Assembly: GCA_964640365.1 (NCBI GenBank)
Contig: CAZXHO010000001.1
Location: forward strand, 1-34,949
Origin: an uncultured Sangeribacter sp.
GTDB lineage: Bacteria > Bacteroidota > Bacteroidia > Bacteroidales > Muribaculaceae
Direction: 5' to 3'
Length of the DNA stretch: 34,949 nt
How positions within the stretch are numbered: position 1 is the stretch's first letter; each line of letters starts with the position of its first letter. Shown piece by piece: positions 1 through 18,768 of this stretch. A model generated the notes under the pieces. The model did not search any database. It was not told where the DNA came from and worked only from the letters and a program-made list of their open reading frames with translations. A program made the position numbers and the translations under genes.

Positions 1-1877
<1,877 letters not shown>

Positions 1878-3335
1878 TTACAATTTCAAAATTTCAGACT
1901 GTTTGTAAACTCCAAATGTGTGAAGAGCCGGAGTTGCGTTGCCATCAAGAATACGGAGTCGCACGTACTTAGCTGTAACCGGAGAAAAGCGCACAATCCA
2001 TTTGTGGCCCACCGACTGAAGTGCCGATGCCTCCGGAATCATGGTCCAGTCTTTACCATTCTGAGAATATTCCACACACCACGATGTAGTACGATGACCT
2101 AATTCTATCACTTCCTGAAGCATAAGACAATCGAAAGTCTCCTTTTTAGGTAGAGCGAATATAAGATCGGATTTAACTTCTCCGTCTTGTCCGGCATAAT
2201 ATGTCGTCTCATCTTCATCTATTAGATTACGAGCATCGAATTTTTTACCTCGTGAATTGGTGGTAATGATCTTTGCACCTTTAAGAAGATTCTTGCCAAA
2301 AGTTTCATCCAGCCCCTTGCGAAGCGTCACAACGTTCAGAGAATCAATAGAATTCAATAATCCTCGACGGTCAGGAGGAAGATTTAGGAGCAAGACGCTA
2401 TTACGACCGACAGAGTTACAATAGATGTCCCAAAGTTCACTCACAGGTTTTACTCTCGAATCCTCTTCAGGATGATAGAACCAACTTGGGCGAATGGATA
2501 CGTCAGTTTCAGCCGGAATGTAAGCATTGCCATTTTTCACTCCATTGTTGAGACCCTCATAATGGCTTGCCTCGTCGCGGATAGCAATAGAATCGGTAGT
2601 CGACCAGCAGGGGTCGCCGCATTGTCCCGCCTCGTTGCCCATCCAACGAACATCTGCGAAGGGATAGGAGTTTTTTGTTCCAAAAATCACGCAATCCGGT
2701 TGTGCTTTCCTTACTATCTCATACCATTCCGTATATAATGGGGTTGTTAGCTCATCAGCCCCGGCACCATCCCACCATGTTTCCCATATTTTACCATAAT
2801 CGGTCATGAGTTCTCCGAGTTGCTTGGCATAGTAGTCTTTATATCGGGAAGTAGAATAATCCGGATGAAGATGTTCATGGCGATCGTGTGGACCGAGATA
2901 AATGCCGGCTTTAATTCCGTTCTCTTCACAAGCATCGGTAAATTCACGCACCACATCACCTTTACCCCTCTTCCATGAGGAGTTCTTCACGCAATAGTCA
3001 GTATACTTACTTGGCCATAGGCAAAAACCATCGGCATGTTTAGCAGTCAGAATAGCGGCAGGAATACCCGCATTCTTGAGAGTTTCCATCCATTGATTAC
3101 AATCAAGTGCAGTAGGATTGAAAATAGCTGCAGGAGCCTTACCGTCGCCTTCGTTCACAAAATCTTCGAAAGTATTAATTCCGAAATGAAAAAAAGCTAT
3201 CATCTCACGGTCATACCATTCCTTTTGGCGTTCATTGGGAATTGGACCGTATGGCTTTGGTGCATCCTGAGCCTGACCGGTTGTCGTGGCAGAAAGGGTG
3301 AGCAGGATGCCCGATAGTATCTTGTCAAGTTTCAT
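1878..3335 (-). CDS. GH29 alpha-L-fucosidase with C-terminal F5/8 type C (CBM32-like) domain
   Basis: Motifs FFHFGINTF, LTAKHADGFCLWPS, WWDGA (nucleophile), DVSIRPSWFYH, SVGRNSVLLLNLPPD; signal peptide. Confidence 0.95.
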   Translation of the reverse strand: MKLDKILSGILLTLSATTTGQAQDAPKPYGPIPNERQKEWYDREMIAFFHFGINTFEDFVNEGDGKAPAAIFNPTALDCNQWMETLKNAGIPAAILTAKHADGFCLWPSKYTDYCVKNSSWKRGKGDVVREFTDACEENGIKAGIYLGPHDRHEHLHPDYSTSRYKDYYAKQLGELMTDYGKIWETWWDGAGADELTTPLYTEWYEIVRKAQPDCVIFGTKNSYPFADVRWMGNEAGQCGDPCWSTTDSIAIRDEASHYEGLNNGVKNGNAYIPAETDVSIRPSWFYHPEEDSRVKPVSELWDIYCNSVGRNSVLLLNLPPDRRGLLNSIDSLNVVTLRKGLDETFGKNLLKGAKIITTNSRGKKFDARNLIDEDETTYYAGQDGEVKSDLIFALPKKETFDCLMLQEVIELGHRTTSWCVEYSQNGKDWTMIPEASALQSVGHKWIVRFSPVTAKYVRLRILDGNATPALHTFGVYKQSEILKL

Positions 3336-3435
3336 GGGTTGGTTGCTGGTGTTTGAATGTTGAATTTAGAGAAATAGGAAGATTTTAAAAAAGTAGAAAA
3401 AACGAGGAGAGAGAATCGGTTTCAGAACTTGATGG

Positions 3436-3481
3436 CAAAATTACTCATATGTGATTAGACAAGGGATTAACCCGAGGTTAA
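3436..3481 (-). promoter_or_regulatory. Promoter of GH29-GH2 operon: -7 element TAATTTTG preceded by three direct repeats
   Basis: Minus strand reads TTAACC-tcggg-TTAATC-ccttgt-CTAATC-acatatgag-TAATTTTG; TAnnTTTG is the Bacteroidetes -7 consensus. Confidence 0.75.
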
Positions 3482-3577
3482 TTTACTCTAAATTTTAAAG
3501 AAATTTCATTAATCTTCCTCTACTCCCGAATAAAGGGATGCGCCAGAACCGCTAAATTTTGATCAAGCTCACGACAG

Positions 3578-3626
3578 TAGGGGGTTAATTATTTTTTAGG
3601 GGGTTAACGCAATTATTAACCCCTAC
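3578..3626. repeat. Direct and inverted TAGGGG(G)TTAA repeats
   Basis: TAGGGGGTTAA at 3578-3588 and 3597-3607; inverted copy TTAACCCCTAC at 3616-3626. Confidence 0.8.
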
Positions 3627-3661
3627 TTAATCTTATGATTAATAAGCCATATCTAATTTTG
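3616..3661 (+). promoter_or_regulatory. Promoter of susCD operon: -7 element TAATTTTG preceded by three direct repeats
   Basis: Plus strand reads TTAACC-cctac-TTAATC-ttatga-TTAATA-agccatatc-TAATTTTG; same spacing as 3436-3481. Confidence 0.75.
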
Positions 3662-3758
3662 CGCTCAGTTTCAGAACCCTATGGGGCATAGCAGTAATTT
3701 CTCACCAATAACTGCTGCACCTTAAAATTACAAAAATAATTCTATTCATAAACCAATC

Positions 3759-6700
3759 ATGAAAAAACCGAAACCACTTAACACTATCAGAGTACCCCTC
3801 GCCATAGCACTCGGCATTGGACTGATTCCTTCCATTACTCCGGGTGTAAGGGCGGAAGAGGGAACTTTATCCTCTGTATCCATAAATAACGAACAGACAC
3901 TTATTACTTATAAAGGAATAGTGCTCGACACGCAGAATGAAGGTTTACCCGGCGTCACCATACAGGTTGCAGGAACTAAGAAAGCTACCGTCACAGATAT
4001 TGACGGTGGATTCTCCATCGCTGCTCCACGCGGAGCACGCCTTACTTTCACTATGGTTGGTCTGGAGCCAAAAACAGTGACACTCGGATCTGACACCAAT
4101 CTTAAGATACAAATGCTTGAATCTTCACTGTCTCTTGATGAAGTAGTGGTAGTAGGATACGGCACTCAAAAGAAAGAGAATCTAACAGGTGCCGTGTCCG
4201 GTGTGACGGCAAAGGAACTCGAAGACCGTCCTATTACAAATCTTAGCCAAGGTCTGCAGGGTCTTATAGGCAATTTAAATATTTCAGCAAGTGACGGCAC
4301 ACCCGGCCGTGGATTCGGGTTCAATGTCAGGGGTACTACTTCTGTAAACTCTTCCGGTCCGCTTGTATTGGTCGATGGTGTTCAGATGGATCCCAATATG
4401 ATCAATCCTGCAGACGTAGAGAGCGTGTCTGTGCTAAAGGATGCGGCTTCCGCAGCTATCTATGGAACACAGGCCGCTTACGGTGTCGTGCTTATAACCA
4501 CCAAGAAAGGTAAGGAACAGAAGCCAAAACTTACTTTTTCGGCAAATCTCTCATGGAACAGACCTACCAAGATCCCTGAGTACATAGACTCCTGGACATT
4601 TGCAAATTTCCATAATCTCACCAACAGGAACTCAGGCGGAGGCGACTACTATGACCAGACTCAAATGGATCATATATATGCCTATTATACAGATCCATCT
4701 CATAATCTTCCCGTTTACATCGATCCGTCAAATTCCGATAAGTATCTTTATTGCGGCAACACAGACTGGATAAATGAGACCAGAAAGACCACTACACTCA
4801 CTCAACAATATAACGTCTCCATTTCGGGAGGCTCAGGAAAAACCACTTACTACGGATCGGCAGGATTCATGAATCAGGAAGGACAGCTGAAGCACTATGA
4901 TGATAAATATCAGCGTTTCAATGCGTCCTTGAATATCAACTCTCAGGTGTTATCTTGGCTCAACATAGGGATGAAAGCCAATTATAACTATGCTAACCGC
5001 GACACTCCATACGGATCTCACAATAATGACATGGGCTCATCTTTCTATGGTGCTGACCTTCGACCCTTCATGCCCGTATATCATCCCGATGGCAACTATT
5101 CCGGACAAGGAAGCTGGACCAACATGGTGGCAACCCAGGCTCTGTCAGGAAGCCGTATACATAAGGAAAATGACCTATGGCTCACAGGCATTATCCGGAT
5201 TCAGCCACTTAAAGACTGGAATATAAATCTTGATTACACACGCAACATATATTCCATCAACAAGAAATATCATGGCAAAGAAATAATAGAGCACTATGCC
5301 AATCCGGAAGTCACAACTATCTTCCCGCACATCACTCCCAGTACAGTGAAATATACCAACGACAATAACTATTATGATGCCGTAAATATTTATTCAGATT
5401 ATGTTCGTGACTTCGGACTACATAACATTAAACTGTTGCTTGGTTATAATTATGAACACCATAGCTGGGCTTGGTTTGATGCAGAACGTCAAAATCTGAT
5501 AAGTCCCGACATCGCATCTCTCGGAATGGCATATGGAGAGAAATACAATGGCAGCGGTTCACACGCAAGTGCTACAGAGGGCTTCTTCGGGCGTATAAAC
5601 TATAATTATGACAACCGCTATCTTCTGGAACTCAACGGCAGATACGACGGTTCATCGAAATTCCCCAAAAAGAAACGCTATGCTTTCTTCCCTTCTTTCT
5701 CATTAGGATGGAGAATCTCCGGCGAAAAATTCTGGGAACCTATTATTCCCTACGTCAATGAACTAAAGATACGCGGTTCTTATGGTAAGCTAGGAAATCA
5801 ATCGGTTGGTGGAGACTATCCTTATATCGCTACAATGGGTGCCAACGGCGAGATGGGTTATCTAATAGATGGTAAAAAGATTGCCTGTGTAGGCACGCCC
5901 GGACTCGTCAGTCCGTTTCTCACTTGGGAAACAGTTAAACAGGTGGATTTAGGTATCGACTTCGGTGCTTTGAACAACCGTCTTTTCGGTTCATTCGACT
6001 GGTATCGCCGTCTAACCGTAGATATGGTCACAAGCGGAACTCCTCTTCCCGCTGTTCTCGGAACGGGAGCGCCTCAAGCAAACACCGCCGACCTGAGAAC
6101 CGATGGTTGGGAACTTACCATCGGATGGCGCGACCGTCTGCCTTTCGGATTATCATATGATGTAAGCCTCGTACTTTCTGACTATCAGGCTACAATCACC
6201 AAATTTAATAATCCGGAAAACATTATCTCCAACCATTATGTGGGCAAAAAGTGGGGAGAAATCTGGGGATTTGTAACCGAAGGTCTCTTCCAAAGTGAAG
6301 AGGAAGTGGCTGCACATGCCGATCAGAGCGAAATTTATGGTGGGGGATGGTATCCCGGAGATGTGAAATACCGCGACCTTAACGGTGACAACAAGATCAC
6401 CTATGGTAAAGGCACACTCGATGATCCCGGAGACCAAAAAGTGATTGGCAACAGTGAGCCTCGCTACGCTTACGGCATAAAAATCAACGCCGAATGGAAA
6501 AACTTCGATCTCAATCTCTTCTTCCAAGGCATCGGCCAGCGAGATGTAGTGCTTGGAGGCAACCAGTTCTGGGGATTCGGAAACGAATGGCACGTCCCGT
6601 TCAAGCATGCCCTTGATTCATGGACAGAAGATAATCGCGATGCATATTTCCCCCGTTCAACCTACGATAATGTGACAGGAAACCGTAAAACCCAAACCCG

Positions 6701-6929
6701 GTATCTTCAAGATGCATCTTATTTCCGTCTGAAGAACATTACCCTCGGATATACACTGCCTGAAAAATGGATGAAGACTATCGGTTTTGACACCGTAAGA
6801 TTCTTCTTCTCAGGACAGAATCTATTCACCTACGACCACCTCTTCAGTATTTATGATCCCGAAACCCTCGGCCTGAACTCTTACCCACTTCAGAAGTCGT
6901 TTGCTCTCGGCGTAACTGTTACACTCTAA
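3759..6929 (+). CDS. susC: SusC/RagA family TonB-dependent transporter
   Basis: VVVGYGTQKKENLTGAVS, VLKDAASAAIYG..GVVLITTKKG, LTWETV, PGDVKYRDLNGD; 1056 aa; immediately upstream of SusD. Confidence 0.97.
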   Translation: MKKPKPLNTIRVPLAIALGIGLIPSITPGVRAEEGTLSSVSINNEQTLITYKGIVLDTQNEGLPGVTIQVAGTKKATVTDIDGGFSIAAPRGARLTFTMVGLEPKTVTLGSDTNLKIQMLESSLSLDEVVVVGYGTQKKENLTGAVSGVTAKELEDRPITNLSQGLQGLIGNLNISASDGTPGRGFGFNVRGTTSVNSSGPLVLVDGVQMDPNMINPADVESVSVLKDAASAAIYGTQAAYGVVLITTKKGKEQKPKLTFSANLSWNRPTKIPEYIDSWTFANFHNLTNRNSGGGDYYDQTQMDHIYAYYTDPSHNLPVYIDPSNSDKYLYCGNTDWINETRKTTTLTQQYNVSISGGSGKTTYYGSAGFMNQEGQLKHYDDKYQRFNASLNINSQVLSWLNIGMKANYNYANRDTPYGSHNNDMGSSFYGADLRPFMPVYHPDGNYSGQGSWTNMVATQALSGSRIHKENDLWLTGIIRIQPLKDWNINLDYTRNIYSINKKYHGKEIIEHYANPEVTTIFPHITPSTVKYTNDNNYYDAVNIYSDYVRDFGLHNIKLLLGYNYEHHSWAWFDAERQNLISPDIASLGMAYGEKYNGSGSHASATEGFFGRINYNYDNRYLLELNGRYDGSSKFPKKKRYAFFPSFSLGWRISGEKFWEPIIPYVNELKIRGSYGKLGNQSVGGDYPYIATMGANGEMGYLIDGKKIACVGTPGLVSPFLTWETVKQVDLGIDFGALNNRLFGSFDWYRRLTVDMVTSGTPLPAVLGTGAPQANTADLRTDGWELTIGWRDRLPFGLSYDVSLVLSDYQATITKFNNPENIISNHYVGKKWGEIWGFVTEGLFQSEEEVAAHADQSEIYGGGWYPGDVKYRDLNGDNKITYGKGTLDDPGDQKVIGNSEPRYAYGIKINAEWKNFDLNLFFQGIGQRDVVLGGNQFWGFGNEWHVPFKHALDSWTEDNRDAYFPRSTYDNVTGNRKTQTRYLQDASYFRLKNITLGYTLPEKWMKTIGFDTVRFFFSGQNLFTYDHLFSIYDPETLGLNSYPLQKSFALGVTVTL

Positions 6930-6945
6930 TATCGACCTCAATCAC

Positions 6946-8619
6946 ATGAAACTTCATATTAAAATAGCTGCCATTTGTGGCATAGCACTTTTCGCATCAT
7001 GCGAAGATAATCTTAACCTTTATCCCGAAGATTCAATTTCTGAAGAAACTTTCTTCAATAACGTAACTGATCTGGAACTCTTTGCAAACGGATTTTATGG
7101 TCTGCTTCCCGGTGCTCAAGGTCCGGGAGCCGACGATCAGAGTGATTGTTTCGTAAATGAAAAACCTAATACATGGATATTCAATCAAGAGACAAAACCA
7201 ACCTCAGGCGGCGGATGGGGAAGCGGAGACTGGGGTAACATCCGCTCATTGAACTTCTTCATGCAGCGTTATGGCAAAGCATCCGGCAATGAGGATCAGA
7301 TAAATGCCCAAGTGGCGGTGATCCGGTTTTTCCGGGCTTGGGAATATTTCTATAAAATCCGCCGCTTCGGAGATGTGCCGTGGTATGAAACGGATCTCAA
7401 CATCGACTCTCCGGAACTTTTTAATGGAAGAGACAGCCGTAAAGTAGTTTTTGCCCACATGCTGGAAGACATAGACTTCGCTATTGACAACCTGCCCTCC
7501 TCTCCGGCTACCGGCAGACTACACAAGTATGCCGCTCTGGCTTACAAATCGCGCATATGTCTTTATGAAGCGGCATTCAGAAAATATCACGGTCTCGGTG
7601 ATTACGAAGAGATCTACGAGCAGTGTGCAGATGCTTGTAAAAAGATCATAGAATCAGGAAGATATCAAATCTATACCAACAACCATCCTGAAAGCGATTA
7701 CTACAATCTTTTTATTCAGGAAGACCTCTCTACAAATCCTGAGTGTATAATGCCAAGGGTATATGAGGCAAAACTCCTCACGCATAACAATACACGCCAG
7801 TTGGAGGAATCGTACACCGGCATGAGCCGTGCAATGTTCGAGCAATATCTTTGTGCTGACGGTCTTCCAACTGCAGTAAGTCAGGATTATGGAACGGAAG
7901 CTGAAATACCTGCTGATGAACTGGCGAAGCGAGATCCACGTCTTTCTCAAACCATCGACAACCCCGGACTGGCATATAAACTTAAGGGTGATGGGACTCC
8001 AACCTACAACGATGTACCATCCATAGACACCAAATACTGCACCACGGGTTATCACGTAATGAAATATCATTCTCCCGACCCGGCACAATGGAACATCGGT
8101 CTATCCACTCTCGATGTCTTCATCTTCCGCTATGCAGAAGTGCTTCTAAACTATGCCGAGGCTAAAGCTGAACTGGGTGAATGTGATGATGATGTTCTCA
8201 ATCAGACCGTTAATGAATTGCGCGACCGTGTTGGCATGCCCCACCTCGCCGCAAATATAGGCTTCACGGATCCTAATTGGCCGGACTATGGCTATACTCT
8301 TAGCCCGTTGCTGTATGAAATAAGAAGAGAACGTGCCGTGGAGCTCCTCGGTGAGGGTTTCCGTTGGGATGATATTGTTCGATGGAAAGCCGGTAAACTT
8401 CTCGAGAACCCAAAGTCTATGCTCGGCATGAAGGTATCCGACAAACTGCGCGACCAATATGAAAATTTTAACCGCACTCTCAACAGCGAAGGATTCCTTG
8501 TAGTCTATCCCGACAAGAATTCCCGCACATGGGACGACAAACTGTATCTCCATCCGATCCCAATTGAGGAGACTGTAATGAATCCTAATCTTCTTCCCAA
8601 CAATCCCGGATGGGAATGA
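6946..8619 (+). CDS. susD: SusD/RagB family glycan-binding lipoprotein
   Basis: Lipobox FASC; RFFRAWEY, FGDVPW, FRYAEVLLNYAEA, IRRERAVELLGEGFRWDDIVRW, C-terminal NNPGW. Confidence 0.96.
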   Translation: MKLHIKIAAICGIALFASCEDNLNLYPEDSISEETFFNNVTDLELFANGFYGLLPGAQGPGADDQSDCFVNEKPNTWIFNQETKPTSGGGWGSGDWGNIRSLNFFMQRYGKASGNEDQINAQVAVIRFFRAWEYFYKIRRFGDVPWYETDLNIDSPELFNGRDSRKVVFAHMLEDIDFAIDNLPSSPATGRLHKYAALAYKSRICLYEAAFRKYHGLGDYEEIYEQCADACKKIIESGRYQIYTNNHPESDYYNLFIQEDLSTNPECIMPRVYEAKLLTHNNTRQLEESYTGMSRAMFEQYLCADGLPTAVSQDYGTEAEIPADELAKRDPRLSQTIDNPGLAYKLKGDGTPTYNDVPSIDTKYCTTGYHVMKYHSPDPAQWNIGLSTLDVFIFRYAEVLLNYAEAKAELGECDDDVLNQTVNELRDRVGMPHLAANIGFTDPNWPDYGYTLSPLLYEIRRERAVELLGEGFRWDDIVRWKAGKLLENPKSMLGMKVSDKLRDQYENFNRTLNSEGFLVVYPDKNSRTWDDKLYLHPIPIEETVMNPNLLPNNPGWE

Positions 8620-8679: not shown

Positions 8680-9627
8680 ATGCAAATTAATAAATTCTCA
8701 GCATTCTTCCTACTTGCAGCATCTCTTTGTAGCTGCTCTGAATCAGGAAGCGACAACACTGTCTATATTCCCAATGCGGGAGCCTTGGTGAAAGCCAATT
8801 TCTATATCACAGATGAACCGGATGTGCGATCATTCACTGTTAAACTTACACCACGCTCCTATCCTGAACTCGTTGTATCCGGTCTCTCTTCAGATGCAAC
8901 AATCCATATGGCTCCCGATCCGGAAAAAGTGGATGCCTACAATCAGACTCACAATACGGATTACATGCCACTTCCCGAAGGTAGCTACAGCGTAACGGAA
9001 TCGGTAATTATGCCGGAAGGCACCAATGAATCTGAACCGATCTATATTACAGTGAATGCAAAAGGAAAGATAGAACCTTTCAAGGAATATCTATTTCCGG
9101 TAAGCATTACCGGTGCTGAAGGAATAGACTGCAGCGATTGTTGTCAGACTGTCTACTTCCTATACCGTGGAAGCATTGATGCCAGCTCGATGACGTTGCT
9201 CGATCGCTCCGCTTGGACTGTGCTTGATGCCTCATCAGAAGAACCGCGTGAGGGCGACTGGGGGCATAGCGGTCTAAAGGAAGCTTGTATTGATGATGAT
9301 CTCAATACATTCTGGGGCACAGACTGGGCTACTTCCCATCCACAACCACCACACTGGATTATTGTGGATCTTGGAGGCATAACTCATATTCAGGGTGTAG
9401 CGGTACAAGCTCGTGAAGAAGGGTATGACGGACCAAAAACCATGTATCTTGAAGTGAGCAACAACAGTTCAGACTGGACAATGGCAGGGGAGTTCAAGGA
9501 TATACCCGCAGCCGGACAGTTCAGAAGCTTCCTGCCGGAGGCAATAGAGGGACGCTACGTTCGTCTCACCATCACTTCAGTAAACGGGGGACCTCATGTT
9601 ACGGTCAGTGAATTCAATCTTTTCTGA
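8680..9627 (+). CDS. Surface lipoprotein, DUF1735 plus F5/8 type C (CBM32-like) domain; probable surface glycan-binding protein
   Basis: Lipobox LCSC; VDAYNQTHNTDYMPLPEGSY (DUF1735-like); IDDDLNTFW, PHWIIVDLG, GRYVRLTIT (discoidin). Confidence 0.85.
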   Translation: MQINKFSAFFLLAASLCSCSESGSDNTVYIPNAGALVKANFYITDEPDVRSFTVKLTPRSYPELVVSGLSSDATIHMAPDPEKVDAYNQTHNTDYMPLPEGSYSVTESVIMPEGTNESEPIYITVNAKGKIEPFKEYLFPVSITGAEGIDCSDCCQTVYFLYRGSIDASSMTLLDRSAWTVLDASSEEPREGDWGHSGLKEACIDDDLNTFWGTDWATSHPQPPHWIIVDLGGITHIQGVAVQAREEGYDGPKTMYLEVSNNSSDWTMAGEFKDIPAAGQFRSFLPEAIEGRYVRLTITSVNGGPHVTVSEFNLF

Positions 9628-17049: not shown

Positions 17050-18768
17050 TTATAATAAGTGAATTATATCATCAACAACATTAAGTTCCATCTTCTTGTC
17101 AAATAGCTTCAACCCAAGGACGTCTTTTCTATACACAATGGTAGATTTCGCCCTATCAACCAGGCAAGAGATATTAGTAGAGCTGATTCCACATTTAATC
17201 AGAAGCACAAGATGAAAATCTGTCGGTTTAATTTTACCACCTGCAAGGATATTGATTCGCTTTTTTAAATTGGGATAACTTTTAAGCACCACCTCCTCAA
17301 GCTTACTCCAAAGAGGATTGTTTTCCGTTAGAATACGGTTAGTGCGTACATATTCACAAAGTTGATGGTAAGCTTCAGAGTCTAATATAGCATAAGGAAC
17401 TGATTTTGAGGGTACACCGGTCTGTCGGAGAGCAAGAATTTTCTCTCTCATATCTGCCTGCATATTTTCCATCTTAACCGCATTCCCTACTAAAAAACAC
17501 TCTTGCAAATTAATCGGCTGGAAGCCTTCTATCAACTCCCTCTTTTCGAGGGAATCACAAAGCATGCTCACATATCCAATTGTCTGAGGCATTTCTAATA
17601 ATTGCGATTCATGCCTATTTCGTGATAATAACAAGAAAATTCCCATTATTAGCAATAGAAACACGCTGCCTCCAAGCACACAGTATAACCTACGGTTATC
17701 TGCTTGCGCCGGCAGCATTTTACTTTCGTGTATGTAATAGTTGTAAAAAGAATTTTGAATCAGTGCTTCCTGATTTCCGTTTATAAGGATAGATCTCTCC
17801 ATCTCATCCCAAAACTCATTGAGGTGGATTCTCAGACTGTCAGGCGATACAAATTTTTTTAATTCCGGAGAAAACATGAGCCCATATCCATATTTTCTAT
17901 TTGTAGAACCGGTCATGTTAAGAAGCTTGTTGGCAAATAACAAGGCTGAGTCGGGCATTTCCGCTTTTCTATATATTAAACCAGCGTATGAGAGAGTCAT
18001 GGCATTACTGAATAAGATGGAATCCCGCAAGGAGCTATGGATGAAATACAGAGCTGAGTCTATATCCTCCGCATTATATTTCAGGGCACCAAGATATACA
18101 TTATGCCTGGATGTATCTGAAGGCGATATGAGAGCTCCAAGCTTTTTTGCCTTCTTAATATTATTAGTTGACAGGATATATTCCTGCTTTTGTAAATATA
18201 TGTTTGCCAGAAGTTCAGTGGCATACATAAGTTTTATGGAATCTTGGTTCGCTACGTTACACTCAATTGTCCTTTCTACATAAGGGATCGCCCTATCATA
18301 TAGACGCAGTGTAGTAAACACACGGGCTGTTTGCCATAATATATTTCCCTTCAAGGTCACATCTTTTCCCGTCTCCCCAAACTTGTCTAAGGCAGTATGA
18401 TAGTAATTTAAGGCAGTTAAAAAGTCACCCATATCATGATAGACCCTTCCTGCGTAATACAATGCCTCGGTATATCTTCCAAAATGCTTATTATTTTCTT
18501 CGTAACCGATCACTCTCAATATGAGGCTGTCGGAGGTGTGCTCTATAAATGCCCTCTCTTTTGACTTTATCAATAAGAAGTCATAATAATGTCTATCCGG
18601 ATCCGACAGACGGTGGCAATTGATAGACACAAGCGAGTCAAGCGCTTCTTGTGGAGAATGCGATATCAGTTCTTCTATAGCAACCAGGCGCGGATCAGGG
18701 GGAGGGTGATTGCCACAACCGGAGAAGAATATGGAAAATAGAAAAAGTAGGATTATACCGACAATCAT
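17050..18768 (-). CDS. TPR-containing membrane-anchored putative transcriptional regulator (TPR sensor, TM, C-terminal HTH)
   Basis: Lipobox-like FFSGC; TPR EALYYAGRVYHDMGDFLTALNYYHTAL; TM LYCVLGGSVFLLLIMGIFLLL; C-terminal LLIKCGISSTNISCLVDRAKSTIVYRK (LuxR-like HTH). Confidence 0.75.
   Translation of the reverse strand: MIVGIILLFLFSIFFSGCGNHPPPDPRLVAIEELISHSPQEALDSLVSINCHRLSDPDRHYYDFLLIKSKERAFIEHTSDSLILRVIGYEENNKHFGRYTEALYYAGRVYHDMGDFLTALNYYHTALDKFGETGKDVTLKGNILWQTARVFTTLRLYDRAIPYVERTIECNVANQDSIKLMYATELLANIYLQKQEYILSTNNIKKAKKLGALISPSDTSRHNVYLGALKYNAEDIDSALYFIHSSLRDSILFSNAMTLSYAGLIYRKAEMPDSALLFANKLLNMTGSTNRKYGYGLMFSPELKKFVSPDSLRIHLNEFWDEMERSILINGNQEALIQNSFYNYYIHESKMLPAQADNRRLYCVLGGSVFLLLIMGIFLLLSRNRHESQLLEMPQTIGYVSMLCDSLEKRELIEGFQPINLQECFLVGNAVKMENMQADMREKILALRQTGVPSKSVPYAILDSEAYHQLCEYVRTNRILTENNPLWSKLEEVVLKSYPNLKKRINILAGGKIKPTDFHLVLLIKCGISSTNISCLVDRAKSTIVYRKDVLGLKLFDKKMELNVVDDIIHLL

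Follow-up and report, generated by a model that had tools for sequence, protein, structure and literature searches.

A conserved triple-repeat promoter box as the likely activator site of a membrane-anchored SARP-type regulator in a Sangeribacter PUL

The divergent operons and their linked regulator

The window, i.e., the whole stretch of DNA analysed (34,949 nucleotides of contig CAZXHO010000001.1 from an uncultured Sangeribacter sp. of the Muribaculaceae), carries a PUL in which a GH29/GH2 operon on the minus strand and a susC/susD/BT_3987-like operon on the plus strand diverge from a 423-bp gap. This gap contains both copies of a box made of three short repeats (R1 to R3), each box being followed by a -7 element (Table 1). 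The enzyme of the best PDB match of the GH29 protein is presumably an alpha-1,3/4-fucosidase, a name that several of the PDB matches after 3EYP bear.

Table 1. Genes, protein domains and promoter features of the PUL (positions in the window; residues for the regulator domains).
Feature	Position	Strand	Remark
GH2 beta-galactosidase-like protein with ricin-type lectin domain	3..1871	-	gene cut at contig end
GH29 alpha-L-fucosidase with F5/8 domain	1878..3335	-	best PDB match 3EYP
Palindrome GTTCTGAAAC	3419..3428	-	just downstream of the GH29-GH2 -7 element
-7 element TAATTTTG, GH29-GH2 promoter	3436..3443	-	predicted start 3431-3430, offset inferred from paralogous start sites
R3 CTAATC, fucosidase promoter	3453..3458	-	about -27 to -22
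R2 TTAATC, fucosidase promoter	3465..3470	-	about -39 to -34; overlaps expected -33 position
R1 TTAACC, fucosidase promoter	3476..3481	-	about -50 to -45; numbering by analogy with mapped start sites
Inverted fourth repeat GGGGTTAA (minus strand: TTAACC)	3600..3607	+	12 bp upstream of susC R1
R1 TTAACC, susC promoter	3616..3621	+	sequence
R2 TTAATC, susC promoter	3627..3632	+	sequence
R3 TTAATA, susC promoter	3639..3644	+	sequence
-7 element TAATTTTG, susC promoter	3654..3661	+	predicted start 3666-3667, offset inferred from paralogous start sites
Palindrome GTTTCAGAAC	3668..3677	+	just downstream of the susC -7 element
SusC-like TonB-dependent transporter	3759..6929	+	domain annotation
SusD-like protein	6946..8619	+	domain annotation
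BT_3987-like N-terminal domain with F5/8 domain	8680..9627	+	likely surface glycan-binding lipoprotein
Kelch-TM-SARP regulator, 879 aa	9761..12400	-	convergent with the susC operon
LamG-like domain of the regulator	residues ~22-222
Kelch propeller of the regulator	residues ~223-537
Membrane helix of the regulator	residues ~551-576
SARP domain of the regulator	residues 635-879

Hydropathy of the regulator reveals a hydrophobic N-terminus, likely a signal peptide, and one membrane segment beginning near residue 551-558. The AlphaFold model of the full-length protein, built on a 49-row alignment, reaches a mean pLDDT of 87; in this model, the C-terminal region 635-879 superimposes on AfsR from its transcription-activation complex (8jke_I) with Z 14.5 and rmsd 5.1 over 233 residues, this Z value being close to the noise range of the comparison tool for helical folds. 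Because the single-sequence model of the cytoplasmic domain is poor (pLDDT 55), the fold assignment leans mainly on the full-length model; AfsR is the top Foldseek match of the weak single-domain model (E 1.6e-3). The NCBIfam AfsR profile matches residues 632-756 with E 2e-4 and 19.5 bits, short of its equivalog cut-off of 1430, and the BTAD domain (PF03704), which has no call on the window regulator, is annotated in 6 of 58 homologs and reaches E 4e-4 in the L202 paralog. The modelled region would combine an OmpR-type winged helix with a BTAD, as in AfsR and the SARP family, in agreement with the preliminary description, which had recognised a Kelch-TM-SARP protein in this linked gene. Unlike AfsR and the usual SARP arrangement (an N-terminal domain in a soluble cytoplasmic protein), the window regulator is a predicted membrane protein with an exported Kelch sensor, and its SARP domain is C-terminal, behind the LamG/Kelch part and the membrane helix. 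No kinase, receiver or AraC Pfam domain matched it. The pattern of its predicted recognition helix (KNLRNVTIAKLRK in the window) is kept in 88 family members, and a single copy of the regulator was found in its own genome with the window regulator as query.

The triple-repeat box in the window and at orthologous loci

Direct reading of the window gives TTAACC-tcggg-TTAATC-ccttgt-CTAATC-acatatgag-TAATTTTG on the minus strand (3481-3436) and TTAACC-cctac-TTAATC-ttatga-TTAATA-agccatatc-TAATTTTG on the plus strand (3616-3661), with TTAACC-N5-TTAATC-N6-YTAATM-N9-TAATTTTG as the common formula. These strings match the preliminary description exactly in letters, coordinates and strands, and its statement that the spacers are alike in length and not in sequence holds as well: N5, N6 and N9 recur in both promoters, whose letters coincide at 16/18 box positions and 6/20 spacer positions. 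In both, the -7 element has the form TAnnTTTG of promoters of the housekeeping sigma factor sigma-ABfr, which is also the Bacteroides -7 consensus (PMC7366714). Among 674,541 pairs of AT-rich TAnnTTTG sites of the same genome, six reach at least 16/18 at the box positions (positions that were chosen post hoc), and 0.12% of these pairs reach the overall agreement of 22/38. A strict and a loose regular expression each return two sites in this genome (2,632,104 bases, an assembly 72% complete), both being the window promoters, and 100 shuffles of the window produced no box match with up to two mismatches allowed. The absence of a TTTG at -33, also put forward in the preliminary description, is real in both promoters but not distinctive: since only 17% of 1,162 AT-rich -7 sites of the genome carry a TTTG 17-23 nt upstream, it constitutes weak evidence.

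For the comparison across genomes, 57 genome loci and 80 metagenome loci were chosen by the regulator alone and then annotated. Judged by the nearest loci that bear a name (susC 85% identical), the host is likely of the Muribaculaceae; an ortholog in Bacteroides intestinalis (L014) is also known. When promoters of these regulator-selected loci are aligned on TAnnTTTG, the susC and GH29 promoters carry one common box, which is absent from the upstream regions of the regulators' own genes in the close group. Box scores over TAnnTTTG sites are bimodal, and scores of at least 14/16 are reached by 77 of 2,065 sites in the window and regulator-selected loci versus 2 of 3,065 in the window's own genome, both of them the window's. 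In 29 non-redundant sites, selected by box score, box columns rise up to 1.9 bits and spacer columns mostly stay below 0.5. A free-spacing search of the loci with a regulator identity of 32% or more led to 83 matches, 81 of them intergenic and 32 non-redundant, so the motif, which the preliminary description expected at orthologous loci, is indeed found there.

The spacings between R1, R2, R3 and the -7 element in these 32 orthologous promoters are 5/6/9 (n=23), 5/6/10 (n=6), 6/6/9 (n=2) and 6/6/10 (n=1). The 11/12-bp period first described for the window is retained, the R1-R2 step being 11 bp in 29 promoters and 12 bp in three, and the R2-R3 step 12 bp in 32/32. The distance to the -7 element, given as N9 for both window promoters in the preliminary description, is slightly less rigid elsewhere, with 9 nt in 25/32 and 10 nt in 7/32. 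This one-base shift of register does not define one clade (six changes on a quick tree), and at one locus (L011) both gaps occur with a single regulator. An inverted GG-TTAA upstream of R1 is present in 16 of 18 susC promoters versus none of 11 GH29 promoters, and in 15 of the 18 the inverted TTAA lies exactly 12 bp upstream of R1. In the window, another TAGGGGGTTAA (3578-3588), an exact copy of 3597-3607, precedes the inverted fourth repeat by 19 bp, out of helical phase.

A search with the regulator as single protein found a match in one of 60 other genomes (G028); this genome has no strict box match and its PUL is broken by a contig end. At four loci (L027, L033, L102 and L283), the regulator is split into two ORFs.

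Downstream of the box, 22 of the 32 orthologous promoters have the palindrome GTTYYRRAAC, in either orientation, 5-7 nt past the -7 element. This palindrome is not enriched after -7 elements genome-wide and is no general promoter feature. It could be the site of a second factor at the transcription start. Cur/BT4338 is unsupported as its owner: only the GTT-N4-AAC core agrees with wwwTATGTTnTAnAACATAwww, and neither window palindrome is among the 37 matches to this site in the window's own genome at up to two mismatches. These 37 matches (a raw count), several of them perfect (C48:189, C150:1046 and C254:1827), would suggest a Cur-like regulon.

Distribution of the box, its regulators and mapped start sites

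We searched in three directions, starting from the motif, the regulator or the cargo. The motif-first search of 400 other Bacteroidales genomes led to two matches, with none for the reversed control, and a family regulator lies 177 and 100 bp away from them. In 201 genomes of the genus Bacteroides (the genus of genome G441), 18 sites were identified in 12 genomes; for 16 of the sites, a family regulator is encoded at most 7 kb away. Each of these 12 genomes has a family regulator, versus 93/201 overall, some of these regulator matches being partial. No regulator is encoded within roughly 10 kb of the other two sites, one before an oxidoreductase operon (L200; G519:C142:275781-275825) and one before a GH30-led hydrolase operon (L201; G543:C3:368427-368471); the family regulators of their genomes lie elsewhere, and the two operons are candidate distant members of the regulon.

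The regulator-first search considered 58 paralog loci among the matches listed, or 55 once three already found motif-first were left out. When the box was slid against the -7 element over 17 offsets with a threshold of 14 bits, 19/55 loci passed at offset 0 and 10/55 at offset -1 (overlap not counted), and none at the 15 other offsets. In the control, one of 64 tiles of the window's own genome passed, the window itself. Many of the 55 loci fall below the threshold at both offsets; by eye, some of these carry degenerate or longer arrays and others none (L211, L226, L246). In eight loci of one paralog clade (L203, L236, L240-L243, L247 and L248), the middle repeat has decayed, the array stretches to about -61 and -49 relative to the -7 element, and this element often begins with TT, not TA. 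In a distant clade at 25% identity (L038, L039, L040, L042, L043 and L049), a compact divergent promoter carries GGGTTAATTAACCC and GGGTTAACC palindromes, common to the regulator gene and its neighbour, which would suggest autoregulation.

The cargo-first search started from 17 loci picked by GH29. The box is present in 10 of 12 loci with the regulator, in none of four with an ECF sigma/FecR pair and not in the one locus with neither; in two of the 12 regulator-plus-GH29 loci, the middle repeat has decayed. The four ECF loci, 83-100% alike, amount to roughly a single event, and there is overlap between the training set and several of the 12 loci with the regulator, so that these counts represent a single natural control and no statistic. 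PUL28 of B. thetaiotaomicron (BT2192 fucosidase, PDB 3EYP) has the same kind of cargo, with an orthologous GH29 (73% identity), a GH2 and a BT_3987-like protein, but is linked to an ECF sigma factor and a FecR-type anti-sigma factor, and the cluster contains neither a SARP regulator nor a box. Conversely, the box also precedes unrelated cargo (GH92), beside 29%-identical regulators. The box tracks the regulator, not the cargo genes. The fucosidase-galactosidase cargo occurs with ECF sigma/anti-sigma genes in one lineage (L261 and L279-L282) and with the SARP sensor in others, and the susC/D of these PULs are of several unrelated types (identity 85% or about 30%), pointing to a swapping of regulators and transporters within PULs.

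TTAA repeats spaced by one helical turn could bend DNA, and three box sites lack a nearby regulator. The box might thus serve an unlinked factor, be it a global regulator or a nucleoid protein, or act as a phased A/T structure, either bent DNA or an UP-like element without a specific activator. We regard this as improbable, since the window's genome has just two sites, both at the window PUL, the motif-first matches adjoin a regulator, the same cargo under an ECF sigma factor lacks the box, and the conservation of the C after TTAA(C/T) would be unexpected for bent DNA.

Mapped start sites are available for two paralogous systems of B. thetaiotaomicron. BT3853 is the sensor of its alpha-mannan PUL69 (bioRxiv 10.1101/2025.07.13.664583), and 'SARP-OmpR' has been named as a class of PUL regulators (PMC7641319). 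In genome G593, locus L260 has a GH99 identical to PDB 4ACY, which closes a cluster matching the published BT3853-BT3862 PUL. BT3853 resembles the window regulator in architecture and family (23% identity over 686 columns, E 4e-51), but its cargo consists of mannosidases, whereas that of the window includes a fucosidase and a galactosidase. The L260 susC promoter carries a variant of the box in the same register, TTAATC-N5-TTAATA-N6-TAAGGA-N9-TATATTTG, more degenerate than the window box (5.3 bits on the matrix of this analysis), and the same letters stand upstream of the primary start of BT_3854 in the start-site table (PMC7366714). Upstream of BT_2203, beside the paralog BT_2204, the same table has TTAACC-N5-CTAATA-N6-TTAACC-N9-TATGTTTG. 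In both cases, +1 is the fifth base after the TTTG, which places the repeats at -50, -39 and -27. The order of box, -7 element and start that had been predicted for the window is seen at these two paralogous promoters. The four rows of this table for the regulator genes BT_3853, BT_2204 and BT_1770 hold no triple box. The 2020 table and the part of the 2024 atlas covered list no start sites for two box-like promoters near BT1770 or for the orphan box described below.

The regulator BT3853 is reported to be needed for mannan induction of a PUL69 reporter (bioRxiv 10.1101/2025.07.13.664583), and according to another preprint, expression of BT_3853 itself is unchanged on mannan. The same regulator could also bind the box as a repressor operator, blocking the -33 region until a ligand releases it; R2 overlaps the expected -33 position, and the BT_3854 and BT_2203 starts were detected in rich medium, pointing to some basal transcription (PMC7366714). 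We give this reading little credence, because loss of BT3853 abolishes the induction, the strict phasing to the -7 element and the often weakened -7 element of paralogs (TTnnTTTG) suit activation, and SARP domains are described as activators (PMC10936776; PMC11301090).

With a loose one-mismatch pattern, G593 has six matches versus four for the reversed control, one of them at the promoter of an RNA methyltransferase gene, probably by chance. A perfect box without a regulator nearby (G593:C1:3982982-3983027; L268) precedes an acetylesterase gene that is divergent from a 944-aa gene resembling leucyl-tRNA synthetase; at L254 and L259, a family regulator stands beside a 944-aa gene. This orphan box is possibly a remnant, or else a distant target.

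Comparison with known systems and proposed mechanism

AfsR binds as a side-by-side dimer to the two 11-bp repeats of the afs box (-40 to -19), which overlaps the -35 element; the bases T-38 and T-27 are crucial in it, and sigma region 4 rests on the AfsR dimer rather than on the -35 element (PMC10936776; PMC11301090). As in the afs box, the direct repeats of the window box follow each other at about one helical turn (11 bp), stand a short and fixed distance before the downstream promoter element and extend over the -35/-33 region, and T-38 and T-27 of the afs box fall where R2 (-39) and R3 (-27) begin. Unlike it, the window box has three or four copies and not two, steps of 11 then 12 bp and not 11 bp, a TTAA(C/T)C core with an inverted extra copy on susC promoters, and a Bacteroidetes -7 promoter in place of -10/-35. 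By analogy, the box would work like the afs box, although the regulator and its box do not form a canonical SARP system.

Phylogenetic footprinting has also placed direct-repeat sites of HTCS and SusR-like regulators upstream of susC/D and hydrolase operons, but in these motifs the two sites are separated by 21 bp for HTCS and by 67/77 bp for SusR, and the motifs belong to other DNA-binding domains (PMC3878776). The window box corresponds to neither: its period is 11/12 bp, and its regulator lacks the domains of the kinase-receiver-AraC hybrids. SARP, BT3853 and BT2204 are not mentioned in the text or the five supplements of PMC3878776, and no DNA site of BT3853 was found described in the literature searched. 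For the SARP-OmpR class as a whole, we found no DNA motif in the portions covered of the literature searched, which includes PMC3878776, PMC4978465, PMC8121099, PMC4071793 and two preprints. The SARP-OmpR class is already recognised among PUL regulators; such a site is a moderate surprise, because the SARP model predicts one.

Taken together, the repeats form a conserved promoter box at a set distance from the -7 element and, to judge from its co-occurrence with this regulator family, very probably the binding site through which the linked membrane-anchored SARP-type regulator would act as an activator. It is highly improbable that the likeness of the two promoters merely records the copying of one from the other, without regulatory meaning: the downstream palindrome is common to both, but their spacers agree at only 6/20 positions, and across families the box persists whereas the spacers are free to vary, a column-wise conservation that largely refutes copying.

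For the activator site, we propose the following mechanism. The LamG/Kelch part would lie outside the membrane helix and the AfsR-like winged-helix-plus-BTAD domain inside. A fucosylated, galactose-containing oligosaccharide, a ligand suggested by the PUL cargo, would be imported by SusC/D and then bound by the periplasmic domain. The cytoplasmic SARP domains would be placed next to one another along R1-R3, at intervals of one helical turn, and the pair on R2 and R3, which spans the -33 region, would dock sigma region 4 and RNA polymerase in the manner of AfsR at the afs box. From the geometry of the AfsR dimer and the nearly equal positions of R2 and R3, we therefore infer a ligand-triggered SARP assembly that recruits the housekeeping holoenzyme. 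Both divergent operons would be turned on together, and the inverted fourth copy might be an extra site giving stronger or sharper induction of susC.

This box is a prediction at base level that can be tested in B. thetaiotaomicron, for which start sites, PUL69 and PUL29 reporters and a BT3853 deletion exist. If true, regulons could be predicted from sequence, distant targets included, a compact inducible promoter part would be at hand for gut bacteria, and the activation geometry of Streptomyces AfsR would extend to the unusual sigma factor of Bacteroidetes. A broader scenario is speculative and, in our opinion, rather doubtful: Bacteroidota might have made the antibiotic-activator module of Streptomyces into a membrane-tethered glycan receptor whose domains assemble in arrays of three or four, with the proximal step conserved at 12 bp and an additional inverted site, and which replaces the -33 element of the housekeeping sigma factor. 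As the box is almost uniform throughout the family, paralogs that coexist in a cell (G593 has at least three) could activate one another's PULs as well as distant orphan boxes, which would then form a hidden cross-PUL regulon.

Elsewhere in the window, a GH43 gene is divergent from a minus-strand gene (17050-18768) for a 572-aa TPR protein. This protein has a hydrophobic segment, its C-terminus may form a helix-turn-helix, and it is possibly another membrane-anchored regulator.
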